Below are positions 7,856-16,936 of a stretch of DNA of 64,000 nucleotides, piece by piece. The translations under genes were made by a program, and so were the position numbers. The DNA is from a virus, in the IMG/VR virus record IMGVR_UViG_3300032268_001296, positions 1-64,000 of that record. One strand, given 5' to 3'. Each line of letters starts with the position of its first letter. The first letter of the stretch is position 1. Under the pieces are notes generated by a model. That model did not search any database. It was given only the letters and a program-made list of their open reading frames with translations, and was not told where the DNA came from.

Positions 7856-7863
7856 GAACAAAG

Positions 7864-8241
7864 TGGATCTGATGGGAATTGAACCCATTTCCTCAACTAA
7901 TTATCATTAACCTTCAAACATGCTTATATTGATTCATTAAAGAGAATCACTCTTAGGGACGCTCGGTTCTTGGTAGTTCCTTGCATCCTCCACCATTCAA
8001 TCAGACAGGACTGAAACTGTTTTTTGCTCGATTTGATACTCAGAGTAGAGCGAGCGTACCTCTGAGCGTTAACGCTTAGGCAGCGAAAGCTACAGTTTTT
8101 GAGCTGTAGTTTGGCTTGCGGAAGCTGACAATTTTATTGTTGCCGTTTACTTTTTTTTGATCGGATTTTTAAGGAGCCATCTGATCAACTCCTGCATGCT
8201 AATTAATGAGTCACTAATCAAGTCGAAACCAGAACAGACCC
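7864..8241 (-). ncRNA. ssrA: tmRNA; predicted tag (A)GNNKIVSFRKPNYSSKTVAFAA
   Basis: 5' GGGTCTGTTCTGGTTTCGAC; acceptor stem with G3:U70; GCATG pairing; pseudoknot 1 followed by GTAAAC and a resume codon; tag ORF ends AFAA-stop; 3' T-arm. Confidence 0.92.
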
Positions 8242-9501: not shown

Positions 9502-9786
9502 TAGCCATGGTCGGACTCGAACCGACAAGCCCGAAGGCGGCAGATTTTCTTACCACTATAGTTTTCACTACCTTTACAGTTTGTGGTCTGGACTATACCT
9601 TGATCATAGTATTTCTACTTTAGATCCTTGCCGTCTAGTCTCTACACCTTCCTAATTTCTTAGGCTTGGCTCGGTATTAGCATTTTAAAGCCTTCACCGA
9701 ATTTGACAAGTTCTACTCCCACCGTTTCCGATGAGGCACTCAAATTATCTATAAGTCTGCTGTGTTTACCATTTCACCACATGGCC
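9502..9786 (-). tRNA. tRNA-Leu(TAA) interrupted by a group I intron
   Basis: 5' exon ends GCAGACTT and 3' exon starts AAAATCTGC; joining gives GCAGA-CTTAAAA-TCTGC with a long variable arm. Confidence 0.92.
9549..9752 (-). mobile_element. self-splicing group I intron (IC3-like), about 204 nt, no ORF
   Basis: P AAATTCGGTGAA, Q AATACCGAGCC, R GTGTAGAGACTAGACGG, S AAGGTATAGTCC; exon U before the 5' splice site; terminal G. Confidence 0.9.
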
Positions 9787-9907: not shown

Positions 9908-10116
9908 TTTAAAAATTCAATAATATTATCCACTCCGCAGATGTTTTCTTCTCCGACAACCAAGGTTGGAACCTTTTTGATTTTTTTTTCTTTAAAAAAT
10001 TCAATATCGTTTTCCATTTCTTTAAGCTCTACGTTTAAAGAATTTTCGGCAATGAATTTTTTAATCAATTTGCACGGACCACAAAACTCGCTTGTTGCTA
10101 AAATTAGTTTTTTCAT
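9886..10116 (-). CDS. glutaredoxin/thioredoxin-like redoxin
   Basis: CGPC active site and VPTL motif. Confidence 0.85.
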   Translation of the reverse strand: MKKLILATSEFCGPCKLIKKFIAENSLNVELKEMENDIEFFKEKKIKKVPTLVVGEENICGVDNIIEFLKSECANW

Positions 10117-10145
10117 ATTTTGTATTTGGAAGTGTAATAATTATT

Positions 10146-11480
10146 ATGTCTCAGTATTATACTTTTAATAATCTTGCTCAATTATCTCACACAGCAGGAC
10201 AAATTCCATTTATTTACGATAGAGTAAGCGATAATTACAGACCATTAGAGCAAAAAGATCTGAGCTTTGCAAATTCCGCTGGATCAACTTCTTTTGATGC
10301 TTTCGGGCGCATGAGAACTTCCGATCCTATGACATTATTTGATTCTAGCCACAGATACTCTGACAACAGTCTTTGGTCTATTGCAAGTGGAGTTGGTGGA
10401 GGCTCAGTTTTTAATGCGAATCAAGGATTAGTTGATTTAAATATAACAAGCGGATCTGGTTCGTATGTTTACAGAGAAACAACAAAAGTTTTTGCTTATC
10501 AACCAGGAAAATCTTTATTAGTATTAAATACTTTTGTCATGTCACCAGCAAAAACTGGTTTGACTCAAAGAGTGGGTTACTTTGGCGCTGATAATGGAAT
10601 ATATTTAGAACTCGATGGTTCTACTTTAAATTTTGTCGAACGTTCTTTGGTCAATGGATCTCCTGCTACAGAAATAAGAGTATCTCAAGCAAATTGGAAT
10701 GGGGATAAGCTAGATGGAACTGGCGCTTCTGGTTTAACTTTAGATATTACTAAGGCTCAAATTTTATGGATGGATATTGAGTGGTTGGGATTAGGTTCAG
10801 TAAGAATGGGGTTTGTTATTAACGGACAATTTATTTTGTGCCACACATTTCATCATGCAAATGTTATTGCTTCAACTTATATCACTACAGCATCTTTGCC
10901 ATTGAGATATGAAATATTCAATACTGCCGCAACTTCTGGCAGCAGTACATTAAAACAAATATGCTCTTCTGTAATTTCAGAAGGTGGATACGAACTTAGA
11001 GGATTACAACAAGCTGTGAGTGTTCCCATTAACTCTCCAAGAACTCTTGGAACTATTGGTGTAAAATATCCTGTTATAAGTATTCGTTTAAAATCAACAC
11101 CGATAAACAGATTAGATGCGATTGTTATTTTAACAGCACTATCTATAATGGGTGATAGTGCAGGAAAGTTTAATTGGTCTGTAGTTGCCAGTGGTGTAAC
11201 AACAGGTGGTACATGGCAATCTGCTGGAGACTCTTCTGCTGTTGAATATAAACTTAATGGTATTAGCTTTAGTGGAGGAAGAACATTAGCTTCTGGTTAC
11301 TTCACCTCTACAAGCACGGTATCAACAAACTTAGATATTTTGAAAGAAGCATTGTTTAAATTTCAGTTAGAAAGAAATACTTTTACTGGTGAAGCGTTTG
11401 AACTGACATTAGTTATTGCATCTGATAGTTCAAGCGACAGAGTTTTTGCTTCTATGGATTGGGAAGAAATATCAAGATAA
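10146..11480 (+). CDS. probable virion structural protein
   Basis: DAFGRMRTS..TLFDS and YQPGKS motifs common in aquatic phage structural genes; G/S/T-rich; GTGTAA-N8-ATG at 10146. Confidence 0.6.
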   Translation: MSQYYTFNNLAQLSHTAGQIPFIYDRVSDNYRPLEQKDLSFANSAGSTSFDAFGRMRTSDPMTLFDSSHRYSDNSLWSIASGVGGGSVFNANQGLVDLNITSGSGSYVYRETTKVFAYQPGKSLLVLNTFVMSPAKTGLTQRVGYFGADNGIYLELDGSTLNFVERSLVNGSPATEIRVSQANWNGDKLDGTGASGLTLDITKAQILWMDIEWLGLGSVRMGFVINGQFILCHTFHHANVIASTYITTASLPLRYEIFNTAATSGSSTLKQICSSVISEGGYELRGLQQAVSVPINSPRTLGTIGVKYPVISIRLKSTPINRLDAIVILTALSIMGDSAGKFNWSVVASGVTTGGTWQSAGDSSAVEYKLNGISFSGGRTLASGYFTSTSTVSTNLDILKEALFKFQLERNTFTGEAFELTLVIASDSSSDRVFASMDWEEISR

Positions 11481-12007: not shown

Positions 12008-12080
12008 TAGACACGGTTGGACTCGAACCAACGACCCCAGCTTTATCAAAGCTGTGCTCTCCCAGCTGAGCTACGCATCC
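12008..12080 (-). tRNA. tRNA-Ile(GAT)
   Basis: CAGCT-TTGATAA-AGCTG arm. Confidence 0.92.
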
Positions 12081-12086
12081 ATTAAA

Positions 12087-12167
12087 AGCCTGAAGTGGGA
12101 TTCGAACCCACGTTGTTTATATTCCATTTTACAAGAATGGTGCAATCGACCACTATGCGATTCAGGC
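12087..12167 (-). tRNA. tRNA-Thr(TGT) with 12-nt variable region
   Basis: CCATT-CTTGTAA-AATGG arm. Confidence 0.88.
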
Positions 12168-12171
12168 GGAA

Positions 12172-12403
12172 AATTTCGTGATTGTAACACTTCCGAAGAA
12201 GATAGTCAACCTTCAAAGCTTTCGCTCCAGCAAACAGTTACATAACAAGCTTCACGCAGCCGAGGCATCCTTCCCAAGAGTCACCTTGAGCTAGACTTGC
12301 GATTTTTACCAGTATTACTGGCTTCCCTTCATGTGGACTCAATGGTGCCTTACCATCAAGTGTCTATCGCGAACACACTAGCTGATGACTAGTCAGCGTG
12401 TCT
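12172..12403 (-). ncRNA. unassigned structured RNA, about 230 nt
   Basis: Many nested helices, GAAA and UUCG tetraloops, two possible pseudoknots; no convincing ORF. Confidence 0.6.
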
Positions 12404-12412
12404 TTTTTAAAT

Positions 12413-12526
12413 TGGAGTTTCTCGCTACAAGATCTCACAGACTGCTAATCCTGTGACGTTTCGTTGTCCTACTAGTTGCATTCTTGTAATTCACCTCGTC
12501 AGCTATATCTGCACAATACGAGAAAC
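12413..12526 (-). ncRNA. unassigned small RNA with terminal helix plus UCCA
   Basis: GTTTCTCG/CGAGAAAC closing stem; internal TACAAGA/TCTTGTA and TCACAG/CTGTGA helices. Confidence 0.55.
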
Positions 12527-12530
12527 AAAT

Positions 12531-12604
12531 TGGAGCTTGGAGTTTTTGTAGAGTCTTGAGGTACCGCCCCTCATTATGCATGCTCTTCCAGACCCTCTCC
12601 AAGC
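12531..12604 (-). ncRNA. tRNA-minihelix-like small RNA with terminal helix plus UCCA
   Basis: GCTTGGAG/CTCCAAGC stem; inner 7-bp stem stacked on a TGAGG-GGCGGTA-CCTCA T-arm-like hairpin. Confidence 0.55.
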
Positions 12605-12879
12605 AAATTTGTTAGATCTTCATCCCAGCGTTGATGGAACGTTTCTTCTCCATCGTCACCGCTAACCAACCAATCGATTCTTTGTGCCATGATAGCAGCT
12701 TGACTTAGAATGTCAACGGCGGTTCGGAACTTTTGGATCGTGCCATCGCTGTAGCTGCGGATGGCGACGGTGCCGTATTCATTGGTCTGATCAGAATTGT
12801 TATTCTTGATCAGACGCTCGATCTCTCTAGCGATTTCGAAAATGTCGTATTGTTTGTAATCAAAATGTCCTCCGCTCAT
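12574..12879 (-). CDS. hypothetical phage protein (MSGGHFDY start)
   Basis: MSGG.FDY...IDWL.SGD.GE pattern; TATAAT-6nt-ATG upstream. Confidence 0.7.
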   Translation of the reverse strand: MSGGHFDYKQYDIFEIAREIERLIKNNNSDQTNEYGTVAIRSYSDGTIQKFRTAVDILSQAAIMAQRIDWLVSGDDGEETFHQRWDEDLTNLLGEGLEEHA

Positions 12880-12912
12880 ACTGTAATTATATTAGTGTTC
12901 CTTTGAATTTGA

Positions 12913-12984
12913 CTCCCAGTCTTGGCAACGATCCAAGCTCACACCGCTTAACAGGCGGGCCGCACCCCATGTGCGTTACTGAGA
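12913..12984 (-). tRNA. tRNA-Asn(GTT), atypical D/T loops
   Basis: Loop CTGTTAA; G73; T-loop ATCGTTG; A at position 8. Confidence 0.8.
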
Positions 12985-13022: not shown

Positions 13023-13093
13023 TAGGGGTAGAAGGTAACGCTCCTTCTTCTACGGTTTAAAAGACCGTTACATCACTTTAATGTTTTACCCCC
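13023..13093 (-). tRNA. tRNA-Lys(TTT), atypical D/T loops
   Basis: ACGGT-CTTTTAA-ACCGT arm; T-loop AGCGTTA; A at position 8. Confidence 0.8.
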
Positions 13094-13101
13094 TAAAAAC
13101 A

Positions 13102-13194
13102 TTCTACCGTGCAGGATTCGCCCGACTCAAACAATCAGGCCGAAGCACTACGATCATTATATCACCGTTCCTTATAGGCTCTTATCAGGTAGAA
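13102..13194 (-). ncRNA. unassigned structured small RNA
   Basis: TTCTACC/GGTAGAA closing stem, two hairpins, possible AGGA/TCCT pseudoknot. Confidence 0.45.
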
Positions 13195-13198
13195 AAAG

Positions 13199-13789: not shown

Positions 13790-13796
13790 TTGAAAG

Positions 13797-13825
13797 TAGG
13801 TCGTGAGGGAATCGAACCCCCGTTG
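13797..13825 (-). pseudogene. 3' half of a tRNA (T-arm and acceptor 3' strand only)
   Basis: GGGGG-TTCGATT-CCCTC-ACGACCT-A with no matching 5' half; abuts the HNH gene insertion. Confidence 0.65.
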
Positions 13826-13870
13826 ATTTTTTTTTTGAACGATGTTGTATTCATTCGTGTAAATACTAAT

Positions 13871-14392
13871 ATGAAATGCTTACATTGTCAAGAAGAAACT
13901 AAAAATCCAAAATTTTGCTGTCGTACTTGTGCAGCGATATATAATAATAAAAAAAGTCCAAAAAGAAAATTAACTAGATTGTGTTCATGTTTAGACTGCA
14001 AAAACATAGTAAGAAACTATAGATCTTCTCTATGCGAGACTCACTATCAAGAGTATTTAAAATGTAAAAAAGATTCTATACTAGAGACTACGATAGGAGA
14101 ATATAGAGATAGAAACAAATTGCTTCATAGTTCATCAACTCATGCACACATAAGAGGATTAGCGAGAAGCTGGTTCAAAGAGTTAACAAAAAAACCATGT
14201 GCTGCTTGTGGTTATAATAAGCATGTTGAACTGTGCCATATTAAATCGATGGCTTCTTTTGCAGAAGATAGCTTAATTAAGGAAGTAAACAACAAAGACA
14301 ATATCGTTCAATTATGTCCAAATTGCCATTGGGAATTTGACAATGGTTTATTAAACAGAGAGCAGGGATGGCAGGACTCGAACCTGCATTGA
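13871..14392 (+). CDS. HNH endonuclease (homing-type), antisense to the tRNA array
   Basis: N-terminal C..C/KFCC..C zinc finger; C..CG..ELCHI...N...LCPNCHWEFD motif; GTGTAA-N8-ATG. Confidence 0.85.
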   Translation: MKCLHCQEETKNPKFCCRTCAAIYNNKKSPKRKLTRLCSCLDCKNIVRNYRSSLCETHYQEYLKCKKDSILETTIGEYRDRNKLLHSSSTHAHIRGLARSWFKELTKKPCAACGYNKHVELCHIKSMASFAEDSLIKEVNNKDNIVQLCPNCHWEFDNGLLNREQGWQDSNLH

Positions 14393-15709: not shown

Positions 15710-16273
15710 TTATAAAAAAGATTCCCATTCTTTTCTAACTTTATTTACATTAAATATGAAAGACGGAATTGATGGTGCTTGAGGCACATTTCCATTAATA
15801 TCATACCAAGGAGTATAAGATCCCTTTTTGCAATTACAAGAACGACAAGCGAGAACTCTATTCGAGTGATCGTCTGTGCCACCTTTGCTTCGAGGATGAA
15901 TATGATCGATTGTTAAATCAGAAATATTCTTCTTTGTAAAACAATACTGACAAACATAGCCGTGGATTTTAGCTAGCTCATAAACAGTGAGCTTTTTTCT
16001 TTTAGGCTTAGTGAAGTATTTGCTTGTTACAACAAGCAGTGTTGGAATTGGCCAAACGGCTTTTGCGCTACGAAGAACAGGTTGATCTTCATAAAACTCT
16101 GCATGCTCATTCCAAGCTTCTAGCGAATGGAAAAGATTACTATTTTTATCGAGAGCTGTAACGTTATCTTTGAGCAGATGCAAAAAAGCATCTTTAGCAG
16201 TAATCGTAGCAATTGGTTGCCACGCGCTATTCAACAATAAGGTTGTTTTAAAATCTGAATCTACTACATTCAT
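15710..16273 (-). CDS. HNH endonuclease (McrA-like)
   Basis: TLLLN..WQP start; CQYC..LTIDHIHPRSKGG...N.VLAC..CN. Confidence 0.88.
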   Translation of the reverse strand: MNVVDSDFKTTLLLNSAWQPIATITAKDAFLHLLKDNVTALDKNSNLFHSLEAWNEHAEFYEDQPVLRSAKAVWPIPTLLVVTSKYFTKPKRKKLTVYELAKIHGYVCQYCFTKKNISDLTIDHIHPRSKGGTDDHSNRVLACRSCNCKKGSYTPWYDINGNVPQAPSIPSFIFNVNKVRKEWESFL

Positions 16274-16279
16274 TTTAAT

Positions 16280-16936
16280 TTAAATTTTAAGACAGTCCGC
16301 GCAAGACAATTCACCAGCATCATAGTAAGTTTTTTCAGACTTTGGATACTTGCTTGCTACTTCATATGTCAGTTTTTCGCGCATTGATTTCTTTTGATTT
16401 TTAGATCCCACGAAATAAAAATATCGATGCTTTTGAGAGGGTTTAATTTTTGAGATGTTGTTTTCCTTTGCCCATTCGCTGGGATTAGTGATTTTATACT
16501 TGTCGCGAATAGTCATTGCGTGAGTTGGAATACCATCAATCACATAAAGACTGTCATGAGATACTGTAGCTCCAGTATACAACCAGTTTGTTGCTTGATA
16601 AACAATTCCACTGTGTCCAAAAGCAGAGTCAGCGTAACTAACAATTGCGCACGGTTTTTCTTTTAGCATTTCGATTGCCCGACTAATCAAAAAAGAAGCT
16701 GCATTTTTATGTCCAGAATCAACAACCAATCTTGTTAGCTCGTAAAGCCTAAAGTTCCTATCTTTAAAAGAGTACTTTTGGATAGGAGCAGAAGGTTGAC
16801 CAAAGCAACAAACTCCAATTAGAACATCATTCTTAAAAAGTCCAAATCCTTCCCAAAAGATACCCAATCGTCGTGAGTAATGTTTTTGAGAAACAATAGA
16901 ATTTGCAACTTCTTTAGTGATTTTTTTGACAATCAT
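16280..16936 (-). CDS. Mom-like DNA modification protein (GNAT fold)
   Basis: ELTRL, ASFLISRA, IVSYAD...H.G.VYQATNW.YTG and K.RY.Y motifs. Confidence 0.75.
   Translation of the reverse strand: MIVKKITKEVANSIVSQKHYSRRLGIFWEGFGLFKNDVLIGVCCFGQPSAPIQKYSFKDRNFRLYELTRLVVDSGHKNAASFLISRAIEMLKEKPCAIVSYADSAFGHSGIVYQATNWLYTGATVSHDSLYVIDGIPTHAMTIRDKYKITNPSEWAKENNISKIKPSQKHRYFYFVGSKNQKKSMREKLTYEVASKYPKSEKTYYDAGELSCADCLKI

Follow-up and report, generated by a model that had tools for sequence, protein, structure and literature searches.

The 64-kb stretch of DNA analysed here (hereafter, the window), which forms the first part of a 112-kb IMG/VR virus record, carries in the middle of a phage tRNA operon a strongly conserved, folded RNA module of about 235 nt that matches no catalogued RNA family. 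We regard it as moderately probable that this is the gene of an autonomous non-coding RNA with a compact fold, representing a new family and acting in trans as a stable RNA cut from the tRNA precursor. The predicted fold has a 5′ domain organized around a multiloop and a 3′ domain organized around a three-way junction, the latter capped by GAAA and UUCG tetraloops, along with two long-range pseudoknots between loops and strands and perhaps a third.

Genomic setting and boundaries of the RNA module

The source phage is a freshwater relative of T4-like cyanophages. The virion structural protein encoded at 10092-11480 shares 60-65% identity with the counterparts of T4-like Synechococcus myoviruses, and the contigs and runs sharing the stretch come from lakes, rivers, and other fresh water. 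Its minus strand, read from 14933 to 7768, bears 18 tRNA genes detected by ARAGORN or Rfam, and the RNA module lies on the strand of these tRNAs, midway in their operon, between an ORF and a tRNA-Thr gene. The landmarks of this array are the following.

12879-12574, minus strand: 101-aa ORF, upstream neighbor of the RNA
12170-12408, minus strand: whole conserved RNA module, about 235-240 nt, beyond both points of which the homologues lose all similarity
12167-12087, minus strand: tRNA-Thr(UGU), 81 nt, with its 5′ start at 12167
9567-9762, minus strand: group I intron of the tRNA-Leu(UAA) type (Rfam RF00028)
7861-8241, minus strand: tmRNA (ARAGORN and Rfam)

The module opens with an A-rich flank on its 5′ side, closes with the 3′ tail CACGAAAUUUU, and stops 3-5 nt before tRNA-Thr(UGU). 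A first-pass annotation, made from the letters of the window alone, had placed the RNA at 12172-12403, and these ends agree with the points at which homologous contigs diverge, about 12408 and 12170; all the sequence elements that it listed are indeed present in their given places on the minus strand. It had also described the RNA as richer in G+C than the coding DNA, and a higher content was recovered in the comparison that we made, which was against the window as a whole (0.44 vs. 0.34). The covariance model R2 matched the window at 12166-12408 with 302 bits and identified the RNA as single copy in its own genome.

By combining blastn against fetched loci with pattern scans of IMG/VR and JGI metagenomes, we retrieved eight further copies, carried by L002, L003 (the same as L004), L005, L145, L152, and L140 (the same as L154), which brings the number of distinct sequences to seven, window included, with identities of 78-95%. 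Each of these copies belongs to a tRNA array on a phage contig from fresh water, where the gene order is always tRNA-Asn, RNA, tRNA-Thr, tRNA-Ile. The contents of the flanks differ between contigs, which argues that the RNA is a module in its own right, neither the tail of an ORF nor the leader of one particular tRNA. Indeed, the RNA is kept as a unit while its neighbors change: it is 94-96% identical where the DNA of the 101-aa ORF is 69-84% identical, being the better kept of the two in four of five comparisons, and L152 retains the RNA with another sequence in place of the absent ORF. Upstream, a 107-nt element (12421-12527, minus strand) separates the 101-aa ORF from the RNA in the window and in L005 only (87% identical), with no counterpart in L002, L003, L145, and L140. 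Downstream, an element of about 109 nt lies between the RNA and tRNA-Thr in L003 (3056-3163), L152 (242-349, minus strand), and L145 (2365-2477), with 97% identity among the three, and a 138-aa ORF of L145 (1928-2344) directly follows the RNA, again ahead of tRNA-Thr. A Pfam search of the ORFs inserted beside the RNA in L145 and L152 gave no match.

A few features of these flanks can be recorded alongside. The 107-nt element, one of those that the first-pass annotation had called CCA-ended small RNAs, has a short direct repeat, CTCCAATTT, on either side, and the insertion carrying the 138-aa ORF of L145 is flanked by a repeat of the last ~12 bases of the RNA (CACGAAATTTT). The element of about 109 nt is present together with a tRNA-Thr of normal length (72-73 nt in L003, L145, and L152) and absent where the RNA abuts a tRNA-Thr of 81-88 nt (88 nt in L002, 81 nt in L140); in the window, this tRNA bears a 9-nt insertion in its variable region. 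Finally, a T4 late-promoter box, TATAAATA (or TATAAATC), is found at the 5′ edge of the RNA in L005 (3683-3690), L002, and L140, and just past its 3′ end in L003 (3049-3056), L152, and L145; the window has TAAAAAAG at the 5′ edge.

The RNA family is narrow, being found only in a clade of freshwater cyanophage-like contigs. Scans of IMG/VR with exact and degenerate DNA patterns yielded the same four contigs as the only real matches: those on L086-L107 were due to chance, and that on L104 (20 bits) falls within a 310-aa ORF and owes its score to the very pattern used to fetch the locus. Neither nhmmer nor the covariance model detected the RNA at 76 further loci of the 101-aa ORF, most of them outside tRNA arrays, and there was no match in 80 loci (1.05 Mb) of relatives by the virion structural protein, searched with default filters, nor in four more loci; a pattern scan of bacterial genomes returned 34 loci, none of which was real. 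The closest relatives by the structural protein, L157 and L158 (84% identity, with large tRNA arrays), lack the RNA under default filters, which makes it dispensable for this group of phages. The arrays of these two relatives hold 20-27 tRNA genes and many gaps of 300-1000 nt, and their gene order and content are so unlike those of the window as to indicate that these arrays evolve via rapid gain and loss of cassettes.

With filters switched off, a weak partial look-alike of 16.5 bits emerged in L158 (10825-11014, minus strand). It displays a similar 5′ hairpin, whose loop reads CUAGUAA, together with a GC hairpin and a junction that bears GAAA and UUCG hairpins, is devoid of the central multiloop, and touches tRNA-Asp with its 3′ end; no homologues of it were found, and its minimum-energy fold differs. 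It is possibly a distant, domain-deleted relative, to be taken as a lead rather than as a member of the family, and it hints at a wider superfamily whose common core would consist of the 5′ hairpin and the GAAA/UUCG three-way junction.

Predicted fold and its covariation

The structure model was built by hand from the changes observed between homologues and was scored on an alignment (A3) of the seven distinct sequences. It comprises 64 pairs in 11 helices, namely nine local or closing helices plus the pseudoknots PK1 and PK3, and pairing is seen in 95.3% of its cells. Compensatory double changes affect 12 pairs, as opposed to 1.9 ± 1.3 in shuffled alignments (none of 500 shuffles reaches 12), and sliding the partners by 1-3 columns lowers the pairing to 27-43%. 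The single-sequence folding energy is unexceptional (z = −1.16), and the evidence for structure is comparative rather than thermodynamic. Most of the double changes stem from one divergent lineage, L002, so independent events are few, and an all-against-all tally of columns shows many that covary by descent alone; what makes the pair assignments convincing is their context, as five of the six G-to-A changes of L002 stand exactly opposite five of its six C-to-U changes, within runs that are complementary otherwise. The elements of the model, with the additional candidate PK4, are listed below.

12375-12401, minus strand: hairpin Ha, inner GCUGA/UCAGC (12397-12393 / 12385-12381), 7-nt loop CUAGUCA
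12299-12370, minus strand: helix Hb, GCGAU (12370-12366) / AUCGC (12303-12299), closing the multiloop that holds Hc and Hd
12337-12361, minus strand: hairpin Hc, ACUUGAUGG (12361-12353) / CCAUUGAGU (12345-12337), loop UAAGGCA
12308-12322, minus strand: hairpin Hd, GCCAG (12322-12318) / CUGGU (12312-12308), loop UAAUA
12263-12350, minus strand: pseudoknot PK1, AGGCA in the Hc loop (12350-12346) with UGCCU (12267-12263)
12273-12290, minus strand: hairpin He, CUCAAGG (12290-12284) / UCUUGGG (12279-12273), loop UGAC
12248-12261, minus strand: hairpin Hf, GGCU (12261-12258) / AGCU (12251-12248), loop GCGUGA
12177-12256, minus strand: pseudoknot PK3, CGUGA in the Hf loop (12256-12252) with UCACG in the 3′ tail (12181-12177)
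12183-12242, minus strand: helix Hg, UGUAAC (12242-12237) / GUUACA (12188-12183), closing the three-way junction
12216-12227, minus strand: hairpin Hh, GAGC-GAAA-GCUU, with a GNRA tetraloop, invariant in all seven sequences
12189-12202, minus strand: hairpin Hi, (U)CUUC-UUCG-GAAG(U), with a cUUCGg tetraloop
12203-12391, minus strand: candidate pseudoknot PK4, UAGUCA in the Ha loop (12391-12386) with UGACUA in the Hh/Hi junction (12208-12203)

Changes on both sides occur in Ha, Hc, Hd, He, Hf, Hg, PK1, and the base of the UUCG hairpin (the latter in L002 and L140). In Ha, pair 14-26 turns from U-A to C-G in L140 and pair 16-24 from A-U to U-G in L005; in Hc (92% paired), pair 57-65 turns from G-C to U-A in L002 and pair 49-73 from A-U to G-C in L152. 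Single pairs are likewise replaced in L002 in Hd (90-100, C-G to U-A), in Hf (153-162, C-G to U-A), and in PK1 (62-147, G-C to A-U), while Hg undergoes two adjacent double changes in the same lineage (U-A to C-G, G-C to A-U), these four helices being 100% paired. He is rebuilt in L002 as GCUGA/UCAGC (C-G to G-C, U-G to C-G, C-G to U-A, with a 2-nt insertion) and shows a G-U to A-U change in L152. Next to Hi, position 210-223 is U.U in five sequences, window included, U-A in L002, and C-G in L140. Hb, complementary and invariant in all seven sequences, and the invariant cores of the GAAA and UUCG hairpins offer no covariation to draw on and are compatible with the model.

These comparisons bear directly on the helices proposed by the first-pass annotation, which had named their conservation in related phages as a check: they are kept there, with compensatory changes. 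This is the case of the GCTGA/TCAGC hairpin (by the changes in L140 and L005), of the CUUGAUGG/CCAUUGAG and GCCAG/CUGGU helices, of the CTCAAG/CTTGGG hairpin (here in the longer form CUCAAGG/UCUUGGG), and of the TGTAAC/GTTACA closing helix, as well as of the suggested AGGCA/TGCCT pseudoknot. A second suggested pseudoknot, TAGAC/GTCTA, had to be abandoned, with A-C mismatches in three of the seven sequences and a direct competition with GCGAU/AUCGC. As for the CGTGA/TCACG pairing, it is retained, but not in the role of a simple closing stem of the 3′ domain in which it had been cast, because its 5′ strand sits in the loop of the covarying 4-bp helix Hf, which makes a pseudoknot (PK3) the better reading. 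PK3 encloses the 3′ three-way junction and is 100% paired, with one U-A to U-G change (in L005) and no double change. The layout of PK1 and PK3 would be that of classical H-type pseudoknots, the 3′ part of the loop being paired and no spacer preceding the returning strand of the stem.

Some alternatives were considered within the model. The outer ACAC/GUGU pairs of Ha are weak, the outer pair 8-34 being broken in three of the seven sequences, and GUGU (12378-12375) could pair instead with ACAC (12363-12360), a pairing that is 100% kept with wobble changes and that would turn GCGAU/AUCGC into a further loop-to-strand knot. A long-range helix predicted by RNAalifold (GACACUU/AAGUGUU and neighbors) is broken in L002 and L140 and was rejected. 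A U79-A97 tertiary pair was set aside as well: the data accommodate it, but its sterics are awkward and common descent alone may account for it.

The locus thus displays the generic features of a structured non-coding RNA gene, that is, compensatory helices, no conserved reading frame, and boundaries independent of its neighbors, and its fold is under purifying selection. In this regard, we consider it extremely improbable that the conserved stretch is not an RNA gene at all, and is instead either a small protein gene or a non-functional spacer conserved by recent descent. A 20-codon frame starting at 12268 (the AUG of AAGGAUGCC) does remain open in all seven sequences, with two of its six differences in L002 being synonymous, and all carriers are fairly close relatives. 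Yet this frame spans only a quarter of the conserved module, its Shine-Dalgarno-like AAGGA abuts the AUG with zero spacing, and all longer frames are broken by 1-nt and 2-nt indels that fall in loops and bulges of the RNA when homologues are compared; moreover, neither 12 compensatory double changes nor a conservation above that of the neighboring protein gene would be expected of a spacer.

The candidate PK4 may be a third long-range pairing, formed within one molecule or between molecules. It is 97.6% paired; at pair 19-208, L140 has G-C in place of A-U whereas L002 has the mismatch C.A, and at pair 18-209, L140 has U-G in place of U-A. Covariation is blind to whether a pairing is intra- or intermolecular, and PK4 links the loop of the 5′ hairpin to the 3′ domain, which is a head-to-tail geometry. 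One could accordingly imagine a small analogue of ROOL, GOLLD, or the phi29 pRNA, in which some pairings, chiefly UAGUCA/UGACUA, would be intermolecular and would give rise to a homo-oligomeric, RNA-only assembly, given that ROOL and GOLLD, likewise near phage tRNA islands, form cages (PMC12286853). We hold such an assembly to be very improbable: PK4 shows one compensatory change and one mismatch, L002 and L140 no longer have the palindromic CUAG of the Ha loop, and the RNA, a third to a half the size of ROOL and GOLLD, has no homology to them.

Comparison with known RNA families

The first-pass annotation could match the RNA to no RNase P, group I or group II intron, or riboswitch, and this is borne out by Rfam 15, whose 4227 covariance models include those families along with GOLLD, ROOL, and ribozymes. 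At gathering scores over the whole window, no model matched the RNA; at E ≤ 10 with permissive filters over 12050-12950, only tRNA or chance-level matches appeared; and no family matched the RNA at the homologous loci L140, L152, and L002. The scan was working, as it picked up, at other positions of the window, the tmRNA, 18 tRNAs, and the group I intron. Dedicated tests agreed. ARAGORN and the Rfam clan CL00001 found a tmRNA only at 7861-8241, so the RNA is not a tmRNA. There was no Rfam match to RNase P, whose CR-I (GAGGAAAGUCC) and CR-V core sequences and P4-type pairing are absent from the RNA. RF00028 found the intron at 9567-9762 and nothing at the RNA, whose helix order lacks a P3/P7 crossing around P4-P6; besides, the RNA has no exons, since its flanks are non-homologous between contigs. 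Finally, a "distant" blastn search against phage GenBank records gave no match to the RNA.

Among phage RNAs, the species 1 and 2 stable RNAs that T4 encodes as rnaC and rnaD at the end of its own tRNA cluster offer a likeness, being non-tRNA RNA genes located beside a tRNA, on the tRNA strand of a T4-type phage cluster in which a homing-type endonuclease is encoded as well (segB in T4, HNH ORFs in the window). They are, however, 139 and 119 nt long, against ~235 nt and two to three pseudoknots for the RNA of the window, and R2 run with filters off on T4 70.5-72.7 kb reached a best score of 6.7 bits, not on rnaC or rnaD, which amounts to no detectable homology. GOLLD (RF01998) and ROOL (RF03087) are RNAs of phages and prophages with elaborate, pseudoknotted folds, and their genes often lie close to tRNA islands (PMC12286853), a location that the first-pass annotation had rightly given. 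It is in this setting only that they resemble the present RNA. Their models do not match 12050-12950 of the window, or L140, L152, and L002, even at E ≤ 10 (the inclusion of both families in the Rfam search having been asked for by that annotation), and they measure about 580 and 800 or more nt, compared with 235 nt here. The tRNA-Leu(UAA)-type group I intron is of similar size, pseudoknotted, and equipped with GNRA loops, and one sits in the same array (9567-9762), whereas the RNA of the window matches no intron model, is not inserted in a gene, and lacks the P3/P7 crossing. The cyanophage motifs manA, wcaG, glnA, and PhotoRC are read as cis-regulatory elements located upstream of protein genes; none of their Rfam models matches the RNA, which by contrast lies between tRNA genes. 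By the tests made, the RNA is homologous to none of rnaC/rnaD, GOLLD, and ROOL; it constitutes a new family within a kind of element already known.

From a functional perspective, the first-pass annotation had described a ribozyme-sized RNA of no known class; the RNA is structured, unmatched, and of the right size, although "ribozyme-sized" describes size only and catalysis finds no support. A ribozyme, whether a self-cleaving processor of the array, an agent of tRNA cleavage, ligation, or repair, or the seat of some other chemistry, is in our view decidedly unlikely. Its size, its compact multi-pseudoknot fold, and its invariant unpaired stretches are typical of catalytic or ligand-binding RNAs, and its gene is placed among substrates of RNA processing. 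Against this, no Rfam ribozyme matches even at E ≤ 10, the strand order of the helices fits neither a group I intron nor RNase P, and we see neither a cleavage site nor a conserved flanking substrate, the flanks varying between contigs. It is likewise unlikely, in our estimation, that the RNA would exemplify a new class of compact, multiply pseudoknotted functional RNAs specific to phage tRNA operons, such as a ribozyme or a tRNA-binding RNA acting on tRNAs of the phage or of its host, or a miniature self-assembling RNA like ROOL and GOLLD.

Putative transcription and mode of action

Six metatranscriptome runs contain a small share of the stretch, and in each of the four that were examined, from four studies, contigs cover 12194-12408 at a depth of 3-9; such cover, read as low-depth contigs, carries no information on ends, strand, or level and may include DNA carry-over, and 12087-12193 and 12410-12511, which have no cover, are uninformative. 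One of these contigs joins the 101-aa ORF to the RNA, in a form without the 107-nt element, which is compatible with co-transcription of the RNA and its upstream gene. Very deep cover at 12015-12073 was set aside, as it corresponds to a bacterial tRNA-Ile-like sequence from other organisms.

Under the interpretation that we favor, that of a trans-acting stable RNA, the RNA would be transcribed within the polycistronic tRNA precursor and released by tRNA-maturing enzymes, with RNase P or RNase E as the putative processors. Its 3′ end would result from RNase P cleaving where the adjacent tRNA-Thr or tRNA-like element begins, and the rest would be set by cleavage in the single-stranded, A/U-rich flanks; the RNA would then act in trans. 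Long unpaired stretches of the module are invariant (e.g., UAGUGUGUUC, CACAUGAA, GUAAAAAUCGCAAGUC, and GAAGGUUGAC), and the strong conservation of unpaired segments, in addition to that of helices, speaks for a specific surface to which a factor of the host or phage would bind, rather than for a passive spacer. This factor would most plausibly be tied to tRNA or to translation. The variability of the adjacent elements also makes it unlikely that the RNA controls a single downstream gene in cis.

A cis-acting role of another sort, in which the conserved stretch would be an element of the tRNA operon, namely a structured leader or processing platform with an internal sigma-70-type promoter, deserves consideration, and we deem it rather unlikely. 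It draws on the following feature.

12181-12209, minus strand: sigma-70-like promoter match, TTGACT, 17 nt, TACAAT, with an extended −10 TG (TGnTACAAT); a match to the consensus only

On this basis, the promoter would restart transcription of the Thr-Ile-Ala-Cys tRNAs, and the fold might shield the upstream transcript from 3′ exonucleases. The site matches the consensus at 10 of 12 positions and would start transcription ~5-10 nt before tRNA-Thr; the key −35 and −10 positions are kept in all seven sequences (with TTGACA / TATGAT in L002 and TTGACC / TACAAT in L140), and conservation ends just beyond the predicted start. However, promoter-like matches are common in this A+T-rich DNA (12 found in 4 kb vs. 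7.5 ± 2.6 expected), and the −10 hexamer lies in Hg, whose partner strand, 50 nt upstream, changed in step with it in L002 (TG to CA, CA to TG), something that only a constraint at the RNA level explains. A promoter would, in addition, leave 180 nt of conserved, covarying upstream structure unexplained, and in L145, L003, and L152 other elements stand between the RNA and tRNA-Thr. The cis and trans readings are compatible with each other, and the promoter may represent a second, DNA-level role of the same stretch.

To our knowledge, the purpose of the extra stable RNAs of phage tRNA clusters, known since T4, has never been explained, and GOLLD and ROOL show how unexpectedly elaborate the RNAs of such clusters can be. 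Here, the well-delimited new family adds to Rfam one that it lacks, at a tractable 235 nt and with a model of 11 helices and two to three pseudoknots; its narrow distribution limits its immediate weight. It may serve as a small model for the roles of non-tRNA passengers in phage tRNA operons, among which those of decoy, scaffold, catalyst, and assembly can be conceived. In the phages from which it comes, the operon further includes a tmRNA, a group I intron, and several more elements that are not tRNAs.

With regard to the remainder of the array, two HNH endonuclease ORFs lie in or beside it, at 13790-14392 (plus strand) and 15710-16273 (minus strand), one of them inside the array on the opposite strand, an arrangement that can be likened to segB in the T4 tRNA cluster; a gene for a Mom-family protein is found at 16280-16936. 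In the spacer that separates tRNA-Gln from tRNA-Asn, the initial ~114 nt (13084-13197 of the window, minus strand) are 93-97% conserved in L145, L165, L005, and L002 and adopt a closed multi-hairpin fold with a cUUCGg loop, which makes this segment a further uncatalogued RNA candidate within the array.
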